Assembly (NCBI RefSeq): GCF_044324785.1
Contig: NZ_CP172127.1
Origin: Escherichia coli
GTDB lineage: Bacteria; Pseudomonadota; Gammaproteobacteria; Enterobacterales; Enterobacteriaceae
Reading direction: 5' to 3' (one strand)
Length of the DNA stretch: 64,000 bases
Part shown: in pieces, positions 4,897 to 15,460 of the stretch
How positions within the stretch are numbered: the first letter of the stretch is position 1
Layout of the letters: the number at the start of each line of letters is the position of its first letter
Notes under the pieces: model-generated
Told to the model about the DNA's origin: nothing
Database searches by the model: none
The model's input: the letters and a program-made list of their open reading frames with translations, nothing else
Program-made: the position numbers and the translations under genes

Positions 4897-6258
<1,362 letters not shown>

Positions 6259-6397: not shown

Positions 6398-7537
6398 ATG
6401 AGCGCGGGAAGCCCAAAATTCACCGTTCGCCGCATTGCGGCTTTGTCACTGGTTTCGCTATGGCTGGCAGGCTGTTCTGACACTTCAAATCCACCGGCAC
6501 CGGTCAGCTCCGTTAATGGCAATGCGCCTGCAAATACCAATTCTGGTATGTTGATTACGCCGCCGCCGAAAATGGGGACGACGTCTACAGCGCAGCAACC
6601 GCAAATTCAGCCGGTACAGCAGCCACAAATTCAGGCTACTCAACAACCGCAAATCCAGCCAGTACAGCCAGTAGCTCAGCAGCCGGTACAGATGGAAAAC
6701 GGACGCATCGTCTACAACCGTCAGTATGGGAACATTCCGAAAGGCAGTTATAGCGGCAGTACCTATACAGTGAAAAAAGGCGACACACTTTTCTATATCG
6801 CCTGGATTACTGGCAACGATTTCCGTGACCTTGCTCAGCGCAACAATATTCAGGCACCATACGCGCTGAACGTCGGTCAGACCTTACAGGTGGGTAATGC
6901 TTCCGGTACGCCAATCACTGGCGGAAATGCCATTACCCAGGCCGATGCAGCAGAGCAAGGAGTTGTGATCAAGCCTGCACAAAATTCCACCGTTGCTGTT
7001 GCGTCGCAACCGACAATTACGTATTCTGAGTCTTCGGGTGAACAGAGTGCTAACAAAATGTTGCCGAACAACAAGCCAACTGCGACCACGGTCACAGCGC
7101 CTGTAACGGTACCAACAGCAAGCACAACCGAGCCGACTGTCAGCAGTACATCAACCAGTACGCCTATCTCTACCTGGCGCTGGCCGACTGAGGGTAAAGT
7201 GATCGAAACCTTTGGCGCTTCTGAGGGGGGCAACAAGGGGATTGATATCGCAGGCAGCAAAGGACAGGCAATTATCGCGACCGCAGATGGCCGCGTTGTT
7301 TATGCCGGTAACGCGCTGCGCGGCTACGGTAATCTGATTATCATCAAACATAATGATGATTACCTGAGTGCCTACGCCCATAACGACACAATGCTGGTCC
7401 GGGAACAACAAGAAGTGAAGGCGGGGCAAAAAATAGCAACCATGGGTAGCACCGGAACCAGTTCAACACGCTTGCATTTTGAAATTCGTTACAAGGGGAA
7501 ATCCGTAAACCCGCTGCGTTATTTGCCGCAGCGATAA
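6398..7537 (+). CDS. nlpD: Lipoprotein NlpD (LysM + M23 peptidase-like, amidase activator)
   Basis: 379 aa; lipobox LAGC, Q/P-rich repeat linker, LysM and C-terminal M23 domain; contains rpoS promoters by established knowledge. Confidence 0.93.
6594..6693 (+). repeat. Imperfect in-frame tandem repeats encoding QQPQIQP(V) units inside nlpD
   Basis: Repeated cagc(a/c)gccacaaattcag-like units read directly; protein shows [25 protein letters not shown]. Confidence 0.5.
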
Positions 7538-7599
7538 ATCGGCGGAACCAGGCTTTTGCTTGAATGTTCCGTCAAGGGATCACGGGTAGGAGCCACCTT

Positions 7600-8592
7600 A
7601 TGAGTCAGAATACGCTGAAAGTTCATGATTTAAATGAAGATGCGGAATTTGATGAGAACGGAGTTGAGGTTTTTGACGAAAAGGCCTTAGTAGAAGAGGA
7701 ACCCAGTGATAACGATTTGGCCGAAGAGGAACTGTTATCGCAGGGAGCCACACAGCGTGTGTTGGACGCGACTCAGCTTTACCTTGGTGAGATTGGTTAT
7801 TCACCACTGTTAACGGCCGAAGAAGAAGTTTATTTTGCGCGTCGCGCACTGCGTGGAGATGTTGCCTCCCGCCGCCGGATGATCGAGAGTAACTTGCGTC
7901 TGGTGGTAAAAATTGCCCGCCGTTATGGCAATCGTGGTCTGGCGTTGCTGGACCTTATCGAAGAGGGCAACCTGGGGCTGATCCGCGCGGTTGAGAAGTT
8001 TGACCCGGAACGTGGTTTCCGCTTCTCAACATACGCAACCTGGTGGATTCGCCAGACGATCGAACGGGCGATTATGAACCAAACCCGTACTATTCGTTTG
8101 CCTATTCACATCGTAAAGGAGCTGAACGTTTACCTGCGAACCGCACGCGAGTTGTCCCATAAACTGGACCACGAACCAAGTGCGGAAGAGATCGCAGAGC
8201 AACTGGATAAGCCAGTTGATGACGTCAGCCGTATGCTTCGTCTTAACGAGCGCATTACCTCGGTAGACACCCCGCTAGGTGGTGATTCCGAAAAAGCGTT
8301 GCTGGACATCCTGGCCGATGAAAAAGAGAACGGTCCGGAAGATACCACGCAAGATGACGATATGAAGCAGAGCATCGTCAAATGGCTGTTCGAGCTGAAC
8401 GCCAAACAGCGTGAAGTACTGGCACGTCGATTCGGTTTGCTGGGGTACGAAGCGGCAACACTGGAAGATGTAGGTCGTGAAATTGGCCTCACCCGTGAAC
8501 GTGTTCGCCAGATTCAGGTTGAAGGCCTGCGCCGTTTGCGCGAAATCCTGCAAACGCAGGGGCTGAATATCGAAGCGCTGTTCCGCGAGTAA
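7600..8592 (+). CDS. rpoS: RNA polymerase sigma factor RpoS (sigma-38), full length
   Basis: ORF 7564..8592; start set at ATG 7600 ([11 protein letters not shown]...), 330 aa; codon 33 is GAG (Glu), no internal stop. Confidence 0.95.
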
Positions 8593-8607
8593 GTAAGCAT
8601 CTGTCAG

Positions 8608-8645
8608 AAAGGCCAGTCTCAAGCGAGGCTGGCCTTTTTCTTTTG
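8608..8645 (+). terminator. Rho-independent terminator downstream of rpoS
   Basis: GC-rich hairpin ggccagtctcaagcgaggctggcc followed by ttttt ctttt. Confidence 0.6.
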
Positions 8646-8712
8646 GTTGGGGAGTTGGTGTGTTTTGTCGCCTGGATAAGACACGTCAGTGTCCCACCCG
8701 GCAATCAGCATC

Positions 8713-9120
8713 CTATTTGCTCATCATCTTGCGCACCAGTTGCATAAACAGCTCTTGCTCTTCTCCACTCAAACGCCCCAAAAATTCCTCATCCACACTG
8801 TCACCAATCGGTATCGCCGCAGCAAGTACCTTTTCTCCTTCGGCAGTCAGCCAGACAAAGCGACGCCGCTTGTCAGCGGCGTCATGTTCACGTCTGACTA
8901 AGCCACGATTTTCCATTCTTGCCAACATTTCTGCCAGCGTTGCTTTGGTGCTGACGGCTGCTTCCATCAGTGCCACCTGTTCGATACCAGGTTTATCAGC
9001 AATGGCGCGCATCACCGCGTACTGTGGTTTGGTCAGATCAGGTAACTCGTGCTGCCAGCGAGCCGTATGCTGCTGAAAAAGCTGTCGTAACTGATGGAAC
9101 GCTTTATTTCGTAACGCCAT
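8713..9120 (-). CDS. MarR/SlyA-family transcriptional regulator
   Basis: 135 aa winged-helix MarR-like sequence; divergent from the decarboxylase cluster. Confidence 0.8.
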   Translation of the reverse strand: MALRNKAFHQLRQLFQQHTARWQHELPDLTKPQYAVMRAIADKPGIEQVALMEAAVSTKATLAEMLARMENRGLVRREHDAADKRRRFVWLTAEGEKVLAAAIPIGDSVDEEFLGRLSGEEQELFMQLVRKMMSK

Positions 9121-9234
9121 GTAAACTCCGGGCTAATTCTCTGTCGCTATCATAGCGGTTTTTCAGTGACGAAGAAGATGTTGTTACTTTTCAATCCTTG
9201 CCGCTGTGGAAATGAAGGAGTATGTTAATAATAA

Positions 9235-9250
9235 TGTTCGTATACGAACA
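9235..9250. promoter_or_regulatory. Perfect 16-bp palindrome TGTTCGTATACGAACA, candidate operator in divergent promoter region
   Basis: Read directly; lies 17 bp upstream of the UbiX-like start, between divergent MarR gene and decarboxylase operon; MarR regulators bind palindromes. Confidence 0.4.
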
Positions 9251-9266
9251 ATTAAGAGAGTAAGCA

Positions 9267-9860
9267 ATGAAACTGATCGTCGGGATGACAGGGGCTACCG
9301 GTGCGCCTCTTGGTGTGGCATTACTGCAAGCGCTGCGGGAGATGCCGAATGTCGAGACTCATCTGGTGATGTCGAAGTGGGCGAAAACCACTATTGAACT
9401 GGAAACGCCTTACAGCGCTCGCGATGTTGCCGCCCTCGCAGACTTCAGCCATAACCCGGCGGATCAGGCGGCGACTATCTCTTCCGGCTCCTTTCGTACC
9501 GACGGCATGATCGTTATTCCATGCAGTATGAAAACGCTCGCCGGTATCCGCGCTGGTTACGCCGATGGTCTCGTAGGGCGCGCGGCGGACGTCGTGCTCA
9601 AAGAAGGCCGCAAACTGGTGCTGGTGCCGCGTGAAATGCCGCTTAGCACCATCCATCTCGAAAATATGCTCGCACTTTCGCGCATGGGCGTGGCGATGGT
9701 GCCGCCGATGCCTGCCTTTTATAACCATCCCGAAACGGTAGATGACATTGTCCACCATGTGGTAGCCCGCGTGCTGGATCAATTTGGCCTCGAACATCCT
9801 CACGCCAGGCGCTGGCAAGGGTTGCCGCAGGCCCGGAATTTTTCTCAGGAGAATGAATAA
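9267..9860 (+). CDS. UbiX/Pad1-family flavin prenyltransferase (decarboxylase B subunit)
   Basis: 197 aa, MKLIVGMTGATGA flavoprotein signature; first gene of three-gene cluster. Confidence 0.85.
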   Translation: MKLIVGMTGATGAPLGVALLQALREMPNVETHLVMSKWAKTTIELETPYSARDVAALADFSHNPADQAATISSGSFRTDGMIVIPCSMKTLAGIRAGYADGLVGRAADVVLKEGRKLVLVPREMPLSTIHLENMLALSRMGVAMVPPMPAFYNHPETVDDIVHHVVARVLDQFGLEHPHARRWQGLPQARNFSQENE

Positions 9861-11287
9861 TGGCATTTGATGATTTACGCAGCTTTTTACAGGCGCTTGA
9901 TGACCACGGCCAGTTACTGAAAATCAGCGAAGAGGTGAACGCGGAACCGGATCTGGCAGCCGCTGCCAATGCCACCGGGCGTATCGGCGATGGTGCACCG
10001 GCTCTGTGGTTTGACAATATTCGCGGCTTTACCGATGCCCGCGTGGCGATGAATACCATCGGTTCCTGGCAGAACCACGCGATTTCCCTCGGCCTGCCGC
10101 CAAACACCCCGGTTAAAAAACAGATTGATGAGTTTATCCGCCGCTGGGATAACTTCCCCATTACCCCGGAGCGCCGCGCCAATCCAGCCTGGGCGCAGAA
10201 CACCGTCGATGGCGACGAGATCAACCTGTTCGATATTCTGCCACTGTTTCGTTTAAACGACGGTGATGGCGGTTTCTATCTCGACAAAGCCTGCGTAGTT
10301 TCCCGCGATCCGCTCGACCCGGATAACTTCGGCAAGCAGAACGTCGGCATCTACCGCATGGAAGTGAAGGGCAAGCGTAAGCTCGGCCTGCAACCGGTGC
10401 CGATGCACGATATCGCCCTGCATCTGCATAAAGCAGAAGAGCGCGGTGAAGATCTGCCGATTGCCATCACCCTGGGTAACGATCCGATCATCACCCTGAT
10501 GGGGGCCACGCCGCTGAAATACGATCAGTCTGAGTACGAAATGGCGGGCGCGCTGCGCGAAAGCCCGTACCCGATCGCCACCGCCCCGCTGACCAGTTTT
10601 GATGTGCCGTGGGGCTCGGAAGTGATCCTCGAAGGGGTTATCGAAAGTCGTAAACGTGAGATTGAAGGGCCGTTCGGTGAGTTTACCGGCCACTACTCCG
10701 GCGGGCGTAACATGACCGTGGTGCGTATCGATAAAGTCTCTTACCGTACCAAACCGATTTTCGAATCGCTCTATCTTGGTATGCCGTGGACCGAAATCGA
10801 CTACCTGATGGGGCCTGCCACCTGCGTGCCGCTGTATCAACAACTGAAAGCCGAGTTCCCGGAAGTGCAGGCGGTAAACGCCATGTACACCCACGGCCTG
10901 TTGGCGATTATCTCCACCAAAAAACGCTACGGTGGCTTTGCCCGCGCGGTGGGCCTGCGTGCGATGACCACGCCGCACGGTCTGGGCTACGTGAAGATGG
11001 TGATTATGGTCGATGAAGACGTTGATCCGTTCAACCTGCCGCAGGTGATGTGGGCGCTCTCTTCGAAAGTGAACCCGGCAGGGGATTTAGTGCAGTTGCC
11101 GAATATGTCCGTGCTGGAACTCGACCCCGGCTCAAGCCCGGCCGGTATCACCGACAAGCTGATTATCGACGCTACCACGCCTGTCGCCCCGGACAACCGT
11201 GGTCACTACAGCCAGCCGGTGGTGGATTTACCGGAAACCAAAGCCTGGGCTGAAAAACTGACCGCTATGCTGGCCGCACGTCAATAA
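9860..11287 (+). CDS. UbiD-family reversible (hydroxy)aryl-acid decarboxylase, catalytic C subunit
   Basis: 475 aa UbiD-like; start overlaps UbiX-like stop (TAATG). Confidence 0.85.
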   Translation: MAFDDLRSFLQALDDHGQLLKISEEVNAEPDLAAAANATGRIGDGAPALWFDNIRGFTDARVAMNTIGSWQNHAISLGLPPNTPVKKQIDEFIRRWDNFPITPERRANPAWAQNTVDGDEINLFDILPLFRLNDGDGGFYLDKACVVSRDPLDPDNFGKQNVGIYRMEVKGKRKLGLQPVPMHDIALHLHKAEERGEDLPIAITLGNDPIITLMGATPLKYDQSEYEMAGALRESPYPIATAPLTSFDVPWGSEVILEGVIESRKREIEGPFGEFTGHYSGGRNMTVVRIDKVSYRTKPIFESLYLGMPWTEIDYLMGPATCVPLYQQLKAEFPEVQAVNAMYTHGLLAIISTKKRYGGFARAVGLRAMTTPHGLGYVKMVIMVDEDVDPFNLPQVMWALSSKVNPAGDLVQLPNMSVLELDPGSSPAGITDKLIIDATTPVAPDNRGHYSQPVVDLPETKAWAEKLTAMLAARQ

Positions 11288-11297
11288 GGAGAACAAG

Positions 11298-11534
11298 ATG
11301 ATTTGTCCACGTTGTGCCGATGAACAGATTGAAGTGATGGCGAAATCGCCGGTAAAAGATGTCTGGACGGTCTACCAGTGCCAGCATTGCCTCTATACCT
11401 GGCGCGATACCGAACCGCTGCGCCGCACCAGCCGCGAACATTATCCCGAAGCGTTCCGCATGACGCAGAAAGATATTGATGACGCGCCGATGGTGCCGAG
11501 CATCCCGCCGCTGCTGGCGGTAGATAAGCGTTAA
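11298..11534 (+). CDS. Small zinc-ribbon D subunit of the decarboxylase
   Basis: 78 aa with CPRC...CQHC motif; 10 bp downstream of the UbiD-like gene. Confidence 0.7.
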   Translation: MICPRCADEQIEVMAKSPVKDVWTVYQCQHCLYTWRDTEPLRRTSREHYPEAFRMTQKDIDDAPMVPSIPPLLAVDKR

Positions 11535-11542
11535 TAAAAAGT

Positions 11543-11570
11543 GCCGGGTAGTGGCTTTGCTTTACCCGGC
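11543..11570. terminator. Hairpin between convergent decarboxylase operon and pphB (likely bidirectional terminator)
   Basis: gccgggta-N12-tacccggc inverted repeat flanked by A/T runs. Confidence 0.5.
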
Positions 11571-11574
11571 CTAA

Positions 11575-12237
11575 TTACTTTATTTTATAAAATGACAGCC
11601 GCCCGCTTTTCGGCGATCCGGTATCAATATAAATCTGGTTAGCGAACGTCTGAATGTTATCAAACATCATATGTCCAAATATAAAATAATCAGCGCCGTT
11701 TATTTGTTGTAACTCGCCATTAAGCGATTTCTGCACACGATCAACAGGCCAGAGTAATTCTCTCTCCGCTATTTCTTTGCCAAAGAGATATTCATTCCCC
11801 GGATAATCTGCATGTGCGATGACATATTTTATTATGTCGTTAGTGATTTCAATAATATGTGGAAGGTGATGAAATCTCAGCAACAGATCTATTGCTTCTT
11901 GTTGTTCCGTCTCATTTAATTCAAAGAACCAGTCGCCGCCGCTGGCAAGCCACATATTGCCATCGCCGGTCGCGAACGCATCCAACGCCATCGCTTCATG
12001 GTTGCCTTTAACCGATGTAAACCAGGGCTGGTTTAGCAGGCGCAGCACGTTAAGACTCTCCGGCCCACGATCAATATTATCGCCGACAGAAATAAGTAAG
12101 TCGGTTTCAGGGCAAAAAGAGAGTTGATGTAAGCGAGATTGTAATAATTTATAGTCACCATGAATATCACCAACGGCCCATATATGGCGATAGTGATGGG
12201 CATCAATTATTTGATAGCGAGTGGTAGACATTTGCAT
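11575..12237 (-). CDS. pphB: Serine/threonine protein phosphatase 2
   Basis: 220 aa metallophosphatase with GDIHGD and GNHE motifs; AT-rich codon usage. Confidence 0.88.
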   Translation of the reverse strand: MQMSTTRYQIIDAHHYRHIWAVGDIHGDYKLLQSRLHQLSFCPETDLLISVGDNIDRGPESLNVLRLLNQPWFTSVKGNHEAMALDAFATGDGNMWLASGGDWFFELNETEQQEAIDLLLRFHHLPHIIEITNDIIKYVIAHADYPGNEYLFGKEIAERELLWPVDRVQKSLNGELQQINGADYFIFGHMMFDNIQTFANQIYIDTGSPKSGRLSFYKIK

Positions 12238-12323
12238 AGACTCAAATTTATATGAATGTATTATTATATCAGACCAGGGTATTGAAGTCTCTGGAGTAAT
12301 AAATTACAAAAGGATGTTTTAAA

Positions 12324-12857
12324 ATGCTGAGATATTTCTATGCTTTCCTGTTAGTTTTTTGTTTTTTCACCTCTAATGTACACGCTGCATCTATAGAAGA
12401 AATAAATCGTTTCGAAAAACTTATAACCGAAGGTGATGTAATTGAGTGTACAGCGCATTTCAGTCAGACGGAGAATAACGAAACATACCAACTTAACCTT
12501 TTGGGAATAATGAAAGTTACTTACTCTGGGGAAAGTGAAAAACGCTACCACTCGACACAATATTATCGTTTAGACGGCTTCAAAATTCCCTTTATCCGTT
12601 ATGAGATGGATATCATCGCTACTCATGAAAAATCGAAGTTAAAAGAAGAGATTGTGCCTGACAGCGTACAGGTATTTTATCCTTCAGCACCAGAGCAAGA
12701 AGCGATATTAGCAGAAGCTGTACGGAAAACCGCACCAATGTCTATTGATAATGACGATATCACATTTACGACATTTCCTGATTACCAGGTGAAAGTGAAA
12801 TCCCCCTCTATGCCAGAAGCGATGACTCAGTATTGCCAGGTGCAAACGAAAAAGTAG
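12324..12857 (+). CDS. Hypothetical secreted protein (predicted signal peptide, unknown function)
   Basis: 177 aa; N-terminal hydrophobic segment ending VHA-AS; AAGGA RBS 9 bp upstream; AT-rich; no domain recognised. Confidence 0.6.
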   Translation: MLRYFYAFLLVFCFFTSNVHAASIEEINRFEKLITEGDVIECTAHFSQTENNETYQLNLLGIMKVTYSGESEKRYHSTQYYRLDGFKIPFIRYEMDIIATHEKSKLKEEIVPDSVQVFYPSAPEQEAILAEAVRKTAPMSIDNDDITFTTFPDYQVKVKSPSMPEAMTQYCQVQTKK

Positions 12858-12898: not shown

Positions 12899-15460
12899 TT
12901 ACACCAGACTCTTCAAGCGATAAATCCATTCCAGCGCCTGACGCGGGGTGAGTGAATCCGGGTCCAGGTTTTCCAGTGCCTCGACCGCAGGCGACGTTTC
13001 TTCTGGCACTGACAGCAAAGACATTTGCGTACCATCCACTTGCGTAGCGGCGGCGTTCGGCGAAATGCTTTCCAGCTCACGCAGTTTTTGCCGTGCGCGC
13101 TTAATAACCTCTTTTGGCACGCCCGCCAGAGCTGCAACCGCCAGGCCGTAGCTTTTGCTCGCCGCGCCATCCTGCACGCTGTGCATAAAGGCAATGGTGT
13201 CGCCGTGCTCCAGTGCATCGAGATGCACGTTGGCGACGCCTTCCATTTTCTCCGGTAACTGGGTCAGCTCGAAATAGTGGGTGGCAAACAGCGTCAACGC
13301 TTTAATCTTATTCGCCAGATTTTCCGCGCACGCCCACGCCAGCGACAGACCATCGTAAGTGGAGGTTCCGCGCCCAATCTCATCCATCAGCACCAGACTG
13401 TACTCGGTGGCGTTATGCAGAATATTGGCGGTTTCGGTCATCTCCACCATAAAGGTTGAACGCCCGGATGCCAGATCATCCGCTGCCCCTACGCGGGTAA
13501 AGATGCGATCGATAGGTCCAATCTCGACTTTTTGTGCCGGTACATAGCTGCCGATGTAGGCCATCAGCGCAATCAGTGCGGTCTGGCGCATATAGGTACT
13601 TTTACCGCCCATATTCGGACCGGTAATGATCAACATGCGACGCTGCGGCGACAGGTTCAGCGGGTTGGCGATAAATGGCTCGTTTAGTACCTGTTCAACC
13701 ACCGGATGGCGGCCTTCGGTGATGCGAATACCCGGTTTATCAATGAAGGTCGGGCAGGTGTAGTTCAGGGTATAGGCCCGTTCCGCCAGGTTAACCAGCA
13801 CATCAAGTTCCGCCAGCGCGCTCGCGCTCTGTTGCAACGCTTCCAGATGCGGCAACAGCAGGTCGAACAGCTCTTCATAAAGTTGTTTTTCCAGTGCCAG
13901 TGCTTTGCCTTTTGAGGTGAGAACTTTATCTTCGTACTCTTTTAGCTCTGGAATGATGTAGCGCTCGGCGTTTTTCAGCGTCTGGCGACGCATGTAGTTG
14001 ATGGGTGCCAGATGGCTTTGTCCACGGCTGATCTGAATGTAATAACCATGAACCGCGTTAAAGCCGACTTTCAGCGTGTCCAGGCCAGTACGTTCACGCT
14101 CGCGGACTTCCAGACGCTCCAGATAATCGGTCGCGCCATCAGCCAGCGCGCGCCACTCATCCAGCTCTTCGTTATAGCCCGGTGCGATAACACCACCGTC
14201 GCGTACCAGCACTGGCGGTGTGTCGATGATTGCTCGCTCCAGCAGATCGCGCAGCTCGGCAAACTCGCCCATTTTTTCACGCAGCGCCTGTACCGGAGCG
14301 CTATCGACATTTTCTAATAGCGCACGCAGCTCCGGCAGTTGCTGGAAAGCGTGACGCATACGGGCCAGATCGCGTGGGCGAGCAGTTCGTAAAGCCAGAC
14401 GCGCCAGAATACGTTCCAGGTCGCCGACCTGACGCAGTACCGGCTGCAGCTCGGCGGTGAAATCCTGCAATGCGCCAATAGTTTGCTGGCGCTCAAGCAA
14501 CACGCGGGTATCGCGCACTGGCATATGCAGCCAGCGTTTCAGCATACGGCTGCCCATCGGCGTGACGGTGCAGTCGAGCACAGAAGCCAGCGTATTTTCC
14601 GCACCACCCGCCAGATTCTGGGTGATTTCCAGATTACGACGCGTCGCGGCATCCATAATGATGCTGTCCTGCTCACGTTCCATAGTGATAGAACGAATAT
14701 GCGGCAGAGTCGTACGTTGGGTATCTTTCGCATACTGCAACAGACAACCGGCAGCACAAAGTCCGCGCGGCGCGTTCTCGACGCCAAAACCGACCAGATC
14801 GCGGGTCCCAAATTGCAGATTCAACTGCTGGCGCGCGGTGTCGATTTCAAACTCCCACAGCGGGCGACGGCGCAGGCCGCGACGGCCTTCAATTAACGAC
14901 ATTTCAGCAAAATCTTCTGCATATAGCAGTTCCGCCGGATTAGTGCGTTGCAGTTCTGCCGCCATCGTTTCCCGGTCAGCCGGTTCGCTCAGGCGAAAAC
15001 GACCGGAACTGATATCCAGCGTCGCGTAGCCGAAACCTTTACTGTCCTGCCAGATAGCCGCCAGCAGATTGTCCTGGCGCTCTTGTAACAGGGCTTCATC
15101 GCTGATGGTGCCTGGCGTAACGATACGCACAACTTTGCGCTCAACTGGACCTTTGCTGGTCGCCGGATCGCCAATTTGTTCGCAGATGGCAACGGACTCG
15201 CCCTGATTCACCAGTTTGGCGAGGTAGTTTTCCACCGCATGGTAGGGGATCCCCGCCATCGGGATCGGCTCTCCCGCGGAAGCACCGCGTTTGGTCAGTG
15301 AAATATCCAGCAGCTGCGACGCGCGTTTTGCGTCGTCATAAAACAGTTCATAAAAATCACCCATCCGGTAAAACAGCAGGATCTCGGGATGCTGGGCTTT
15401 CAGCTTGAGATACTGCTGCATCATTGGCGTATGGGCATCGAAATTTTCTATTGCACTCAT
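12899..15460 (-). CDS. mutS: DNA mismatch repair protein MutS
   Basis: 853 aa; Walker [10 protein letters not shown]; full-length match to MutS. Confidence 0.97.

Follow-up and report, generated by a model that had tools for sequence, protein, structure and literature searches.

The 16-bp palindrome TGTTCGTATACGAACA at positions 9235-9250 of the 64,000-nucleotide stretch of Escherichia coli DNA analysed here (hereafter the window) is very probably an operator for HosA, a repressor of the MarR family. What is recognised is the inner 14 bp, GTTCG-N4-CGAAC, rather than the full 16-mer. A HosA operator at this place is already known, and there is nothing new in this main finding. This analysis established which protein the regulator is, which sequence makes up the 14-bp site, where that site lies and how well it is conserved. 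That HosA binds the site, is released by 4-hydroxybenzoate (4-HBA) and represses in vivo, and where the site lies with respect to the transcription start, is drawn from the literature. In the proposed mechanism, a HosA dimer produced from the divergent gene would bind GTTCG-N4-CGAAC 16 nt before the start codon, where the ecdBCD transcript begins or immediately past that point, and would thereby block RNA polymerase. 4-hydroxybenzoate, a substrate of the encoded enzyme, would then bind HosA, upon which HosA would leave the DNA and the operon would be transcribed. Auto-repression of hosA is reportedly mediated by the same intergenic region.

The decarboxylase locus and its divergent regulator

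The palindrome lies in the rpoS-mutS polymorphic (variable) region of E. coli. Upstream of hosA are pcm (5632-6258), nlpD (6398-7537) and rpoS (7564-8592), the last of which is followed by its terminator (8606-8639). The hosA gene (8713-9120, minus strand) encodes a 135-aa repressor of the MarR/SlyA family, assigned through its PDB match (8aga) and NCBIfam MarR-family matches. Divergent from it, on the plus strand, are ecdB/vdcB (9267-9860), which encodes the 197-aa UbiX-type subunit B of a non-oxidative hydroxyarylic acid decarboxylase, ecdC/vdcC (9860-11287), which encodes the UbiD-type catalytic subunit C, and ecdD/vdcD (11298-11534), which encodes the small subunit D. Their products score 312, 789 and 121 bits against the NCBIfam models VdcB, VdcC and VdcD, respectively, each above the model's cutoff (290, 650 and 30), and the three genes are adjacent and co-oriented, as in a VdcBCD/EcdBCD-type operon. 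The original prediction of a substrate-inducible decarboxylase operon agrees with these assignments and with the published repression by HosA and de-repression by 4-HBA, as the latter are relayed in citing works. Downstream of the decarboxylase genes, pphB (11575-12237) and mutS (12899-15460) are both on the minus strand; a 177-aa open reading frame with a signal-peptide-like N-terminus (12324-12857, plus strand) is located between them.

Variants of the rpoS-mutS region that carry 'slyA/kpdR' together with kpdBCD (yclC) have been described previously (PMC4209514). Over positions 8600-12300, the closest complete E. coli genome is that of strain N3, which is 99.7% identical. Of 5,426 complete E. 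coli genomes, 2,381 had the intergenic region; every copy was chromosomal, and there was nearly always just one per genome.

Judged by its sequence, the divergent regulator is a HosA orthologue. It aligned to PDB entry 8aga, 'Transcriptional regulator HosA', with E = 6e-83 and identity at 131 of 134 aligned residues, and it matched six more PDB entries bearing the same title. One strain has a promoter that fits the oligonucleotide derived from UMN026 (described below), and the regulator is identical to HosA of that strain at 132 of 135 residues (98%). The three differences (M52I, G119A and Q122K) all fall outside residues 53-118, and this segment, which comprises the helix-turn-helix and the wing, is unchanged with respect to the UMN026-type allele. 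The regulator has the winged helix-turn-helix domain of ~135-150 aa that characterises the MarR family; it matched 33 distinct MarR-family PDB sequences as well as 10 MarR-type NCBIfam models, with scores that were all under the specific cutoffs of those models. When 81 HosA homologues were compared, T58-K59-A60-T61 was invariant and the D-x-RRR of the wing (D83, R85-R87) was invariant or nearly so. By analogy with other MarR-type proteins, TKAT (58-61) would form the start of the predicted recognition helix. An invariant helix together with invariant half-sites in the DNA (see below) would be the pattern expected of a dedicated repressor-operator pair.

The 14-bp operator and its conservation

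The palindrome consists of two 8-nt arms that are 100% complementary and gap-free, and it is embedded in the window as …GTATGTTAATAATAA-TGTTCGTATACGAACA-ATTAAGAGAGTAAGCA-ATG…. Its operator core, GTTCGTATACGAAC (9236-9249), has the half-sites GTTCG and CGAAC around a 4-bp centre, TATA, and an outer T·A pair extends the core to the perfect 16-bp palindrome (9235-9250). The intergenic gap in which it resides measures 146 bp (9121-9266) and separates the divergent MarR open reading frame (8713-9120, minus strand) from the UbiX-type open reading frame that begins with the ecdB ATG at 9267 (plus strand), with 16 bases (9251-9266) between the palindrome and that ATG. In the original prediction, the coordinates and perfect symmetry of the palindrome and the extent of the region shared with the divergent MarR-family gene were exact, and the distance of 17 bp to the UbiX-like start codon was right to within one base.

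The inner 14 bp coincide with the published binding site of HosA, which upholds the earlier assignment of the palindrome as an operator for the divergent MarR regulator. Using HosA of E. coli UMN026 and synthetic DNA with a 14-bp palindromic TFBS, binding was measured by EMSA and by biolayer interferometry, the latter providing the KD, and 4-hydroxybenzoate was found to dissociate HosA from the DNA, with a ligand KD of 4.7 µM as determined by ITC (PMC6261655). HosA binding was reproduced in a second study, in which p-hydroxybenzoate was preferred specifically over close analogues (PMC6694116). By analogy, the ligand at the locus in the window would be specifically 4-hydroxybenzoate; release by a phenolic ligand, as had been predicted, is thus on record for a core identical to this one (PMC6261655) and would be expected here as well.

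According to two HosA crystal-structure preprints, Roy & Ranjan (Biochemistry 2016, PubMed id 26818787) reported that HosA represses the HAD operon as well as itself. Citing preprints further credit that study with the finding that DNA binding is lost and the operon induced in the presence of 4-HBA, and citing papers credit it with a palindromic site downstream of the transcription start, a position that, per the citing preprints, suggests a steric block to RNA polymerase. The switch composed of HosA, 4-hydroxybenzoate and the palindrome was characterised in 2016, and it is already in use as an in vitro biosensor part.

The published oligonucleotides allow the site to be compared base by base. 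Those in the supplement of PMC6261655 contain AATAATAAC-GTT(T)CGTATACGAAC-AATTAAGAG, and the natural-context oligonucleotide of Table S1 reads CAGAGGCGTATTTTAATAATAAC-GTT(T)CGTATACGAAC-AATTAAGAGAATAAACA…TGAG. Table S1 prints the site as the 15-nt GTTTCGTATACGAAC on both strands, whereas the main text gives 14 bp. Since E. coli genomes with the same flanks as the oligonucleotide (searched with its 14-nt version) carry the 14-mer GTTCGTATACGAAC, the extra T in Table S1 is probably a typographical or machine-reading error. In the BLAST match of the oligonucleotide, the sole discrepancy was an A that is absent at a line break close to the ATG, outside of the site. The one extra T in Table S1 apart, window positions 9236-9249 are identical to the tested 14-bp core.

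The UMN026 hosA-ecdBCD (kpdBCD/vdcBCD) locus shares with the window the regulator (98%), the 14-bp core GTTCGTATACGAAC and the flanks AATAATAA…AATTAAGAG, and in both loci, which lie in the rpoS-mutS variable region, the site precedes subunit B. The two loci differ in the base that precedes the core, which is C in UMN026 and T in the window, and this change makes the palindrome 16 bp long instead of 14. Overall, the UMN026-type intergenic allele is ~87% identical to that of the window, with no difference at conserved operator positions. Those attributes of a HosA operator that can be tested by sequence, namely a HosA orthologue, the recognition 14-mer and a place before a VdcB/C/D operon, were all found at this locus.

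Within E. coli, GTTCG-N4-CGAAC was kept in all nine other alleles that were sampled (99% to 84% intergenic identity), in which the only changes were a centre T to C in two strains and either T or C before the core; the core was retained among intergenic alleles only 87% identical overall. In exact-word searches, T at 9235 turned up in 356 complete E. coli genomes, O157:H7 and O145 among them, and the C version in 1,813 complete genomes, 1,697 of them exact. The 16-bp symmetry is a minority allele of the 14-bp site. We infer that the T9235 variant behaves like the tested C variant. The T at 9235 also completes a possible -10 hexamer, AATAAT (AATAAC in the C allele), and the T/C difference might affect promoter strength rather than HosA binding.

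Two E. coli genomes have altered genes around the operator. In strain 15.TR.026_OXA (NZ_CP032145.1, 3126921-3127244), hosA, together with the left part of the intergenic region, is replaced by an IS26 transposase gene, and the operator and ecdB are intact despite the loss of hosA. This strain represents a natural loss of hosA that should leave the operon unrepressed. Strain FDAARGOS_497 has one of the closest intergenic alleles (99.3%), and its ecdB is annotated as a frameshifted pseudogene.

For comparison across genera, the HosA protein was used to scan one genome per species, which returned 80 loci whose HosA proteins were 58-99% identical to that of the window. These loci represent Escherichia, Citrobacter, Salmonella, Klebsiella, Enterobacter, Kluyvera, Kosakonia, Leclercia, Lelliottia, Pluralibacter, Atlantibacter, Rahnella, Erwinia, Leminorella and Mangrovibacter, among others. 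The 71 of 80 loci in which ecdB starts at most 260 bp from hosA on the opposite strand made up the footprint set. Each of these 71 regions contained exactly one strict match to NTTCG-N4-CGAAN, in which TTCG and CGAAC were invariant (2.0 bits, 71/71). The centre of the core was TATA in 26 of the 71 regions, and in the others it was one, rarely two, transitions away (TACA, TATG, TGTA, CATA). Information content was far lower in the flanks, falling to ~0 at 20-30 nt on either side. The distance from the end of the core to the ecdB ATG was 15-19 nt in 61 of 71 regions and ~36 nt in Rahnella. The outer base at position 9235 was T in 54% of the regions. Conservation of the palindrome, which the original prediction had put forward as a check, was therefore confirmed for the inner 14 bp, with GTTCG-N4-CGAAC kept in the nine E. 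coli alleles and TTCG and CGAAC in all 71 regions, and did not hold for the outer T·A pair.

The motif is also present where the neighboring gene is different. In eight of the nine remaining loci, ecdB is absent and ecdC is directly next to hosA (L055, L070, L071, L074, L081, L085, L087 and L089; a Pluralibacter metagenome-assembled genome (MAG), Superficieibacter, Cedecea, some Rahnella, Erwinia endophytica and Mangrovibacter). In seven of these eight, the motif deviates from the E. coli 14-mer at no more than one position, and in Mangrovibacter it does so at two. In the ninth locus, from Rahnella perminowiae (L086), a transporter-like gene divergent from hosA replaces the decarboxylase, and the motif has decayed to four mismatches. 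One MAG in the scan, 'Citrobacter sp. HRGM_Genome_0066', contributed two hosA loci (L010 and L023). One of these is on a 5,967-bp contig, with a HosA 99% identical to that of the window and a tblastn match to EcdB that starts at residue 15, and the other is of Citrobacter type, with a HosA identity of 78%. The 5,967-bp contig looks like mis-binned E. coli DNA.

Predicted promoter geometry and lineage differences

Outside of the core, the footprint of the 71 regions displays moderate conservation of TTG at offsets -38 to -36 and of GTATTTTA at -16 to -9 relative to the core, with T at -38 in 87% of regions and GTAT/T-rich bases at -16 to -10. On the basis of this cross-genome footprint, the operon promoter is predicted at 9198-9226 (plus strand), with a -35 element TTGCCG (9198-9203), a 17-nt spacer and a -10 element TATGTT (9221-9226); the exact hexamers in the allele of the window are extrapolated from that alignment. 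Transcription of ecdB would then be predicted to start near 9232-9235, some 1-4 nt ahead of the palindrome, putting the operator at about +2 to +18, and this promoter agrees with the literature in placing the site downstream of the transcription start. A consensus scan offered an alternative, TGGAAA (9207-9212) with AATAAT (9230-9235), for which +1 would fall inside the palindrome; the -35 element of the scan lacks conservation in the other genomes. Under either predicted promoter, a bound dimer would occlude the start region. The ecdB Shine-Dalgarno region, read from the sequence, is AAGAGAG (9254-9260, plus strand), and a purine-rich, GAGG-like block is kept at the same distance elsewhere.

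A second small palindrome, CGCTATCATAGCG (9145-9157; longer form GTCGCTATCATAGCGGT, 9143-9159), is located on the hosA side of the gap. The longer form was called terminator-like on the plus strand in the consensus scan. Some 25-35 nt ahead of the hosA start, CTAT[C/G]ATAG was kept in nearly every one of the 71 regions, and in the window the minus strand reads TATGAT from 9154 to 9149, upstream of the hosA Shine-Dalgarno sequence GGAG (9129 to 9126). Because the hosA strand reads TATGAT or TATCAT 25-35 nt before the start, the 9145-9157 element is probably the -10 box of hosA.

In 34 of the 71 regions, a second, imperfect HosA-like site occurs 56-57 bp upstream of the main operator (L015, L018, L025, L027-L029, L033, L035, L038, L039, L041, L043-L046, L049-L054, L056-L063, L067-L069 and L072). 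Its right half is a perfect CGAAC, and its left half is GATCG in most regions, GGCCG in the Klebsiella oxytoca group and GCACG in K. pneumoniae. The genera with this distal site are Klebsiella, Enterobacter, Kluyvera, Pseudocitrobacter, Leclercia, Lelliottia and Pluralibacter; among the 71 regions compared, it was absent from Escherichia (including the window), most Citrobacter and Salmonella. At the corresponding position of the window, ~9179-9192 (TGTTGTTACTTTTC), there was no convincing match to the HosA site. The Escherichia intergenic region is ~25 bp shorter.

Alternative explanations and related systems

The palindrome taken by itself is not beyond chance. It is the sole perfect even palindrome of at least 16 bp in the 64-kb window, but dinucleotide-preserving shuffles of the 64 kb produced a mean of 1.3 palindromes of this length, with at least one in 70% of shuffles, and statistical rarity was therefore dropped as evidence. 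These shuffles are what speaks for a functionless chance palindrome in AT-rich promoter DNA. The expected number of such palindromes in one particular 146-bp promoter region is ~0.003, and the palindrome becomes meaningful because it falls in that region and coincides with an island of invariant bases in 71 intergenic regions. Invariant half-sites between variable flanks, a near-fixed distance to the start codon and the published binding experiments (PMC6261655, PMC6694116) leave a chance origin scarcely credible. It is also very improbable, although somewhat less so, that the palindrome acts as RNA, either as a hairpin in the ecdB 5' leader that affects stability or translation or as a terminator-like hairpin on the minus strand. 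The predicted fold does have a 6-bp stem with a 4-nt loop, and the consensus scan marked the minus-strand version, followed by TTATTATT, as terminator-like. The folding energy of the leader equals that of its shuffles, however (z = -0.06, with folds as good or better in 85 of 200 shuffles), just 3 of the stem pairs are G-C, an Rfam search of 8550-9450 returned nothing credible, and there is no minus-strand gene that reads into the palindrome. The ten half-site stem positions are invariant in the 71 regions with zero compensatory changes, which favors base-specific protein contact over pairing, and direct protein-DNA binding has been published (PMC6261655, PMC6694116). The terminator-like call on the minus strand is a by-product of a palindrome beside AT-rich promoter DNA.

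Another DNA-binding protein, whether a regulator or a nucleoid protein, could instead occupy the site while HosA acts elsewhere in the region. Nothing specific speaks for this reading; a second conserved palindrome is present at 9145-9157, and a HosA structure preprint mentions that the protein has been reported to bind another promoter as well, that of flagellin. The former is better explained as the hosA -10 box, and the oligonucleotides bound by purified HosA share this core and little else of the region (PMC6261655). In the genomes compared, the motif travels with hosA, even where the neighbor gene changes. The 64-kb window has no second exact GTTCG-N4-CGAAC, and its three one-mismatch matches do not exceed the shuffle level. 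To our knowledge, none of the operator consensuses of LexA, PurR, Cra, FadR, UxuR/ExuR and TyrR fits GTTCG-N4-CGAAC. We consider occupancy by another protein to be most unlikely, ranking between the RNA and the chance explanations, and retain the palindrome as the HosA operator.

Several known systems resemble the HosA operator in arrangement. PcaV, a Streptomyces coelicolor MarR repressor that takes its name from the protocatechuate (pca) pathway, follows the same logic: a MarR dimer sits on an intergenic palindrome and is freed by a hydroxybenzoate-type ligand. Among solved structures, PcaV (PDB 4fht/4g9y) ranks next after HosA as a relative of the window's regulator (E = 5e-16), but it is a distantly related protein with other target genes and probably another operator sequence. 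The best NCBIfam model for the regulator is BagL/FevM, the MarR regulator of Streptomyces bagremycin/ferroverdin clusters, at 88 bits against a cutoff of 230; the UbiX subunit of the window scores 342 bits with the BagM/FevK model (cutoff 420), and the UbiD subunit scores 116 bits with the BagN/FevL model (cutoff 1000). Because all three scores are below the curated cutoffs, the proteins of the window are not members of these families, and because models from the same Streptomyces clusters match them, the association of MarR, UbiX and UbiD proteins recurs. The bagremycin/ferroverdin clusters are biosynthetic, whereas the operon in the window is catabolic, and we know of no operator for BagL/FevM. 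In the classical cases of MarR/marO and SlyA (E. coli and Salmonella), the protein, which is released by phenolic compounds, binds a short palindrome or pseudopalindrome that overlaps the promoter. The fold family, winged helix-turn-helix, is shared, but the regulator scores only 27-29 bits with these models against cutoffs of 120-240, and the operator sequences are unrelated. SlyA is described in a HosA structure preprint as acting mainly by countering H-NS silencing.

Starting from sequence alone (a divergent MarR gene, a phenolic acid decarboxylase and a palindrome by the start codon), the original prediction arrived at an experimentally verified element; this has value as a calibration and carries little weight as a discovery. 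Comparison across genomes reduces the recognised unit to GTTCG-N4-CGAAC and shows the outer pair to be unconserved. Anything modestly new would be confined to the distal site and the second palindrome, and we hold that prospect to be rather unlikely. It is similarly doubtful, though conceivable, that the control region differs between lineages in ways not yet described, through the distal site or through T/C at 9235. If it does, the distal site or T9235 could alter cooperativity, auto-regulation or basal promoter strength, and the O157:H7-type allele in the window could have an induction threshold different from that of the UMN026 allele.
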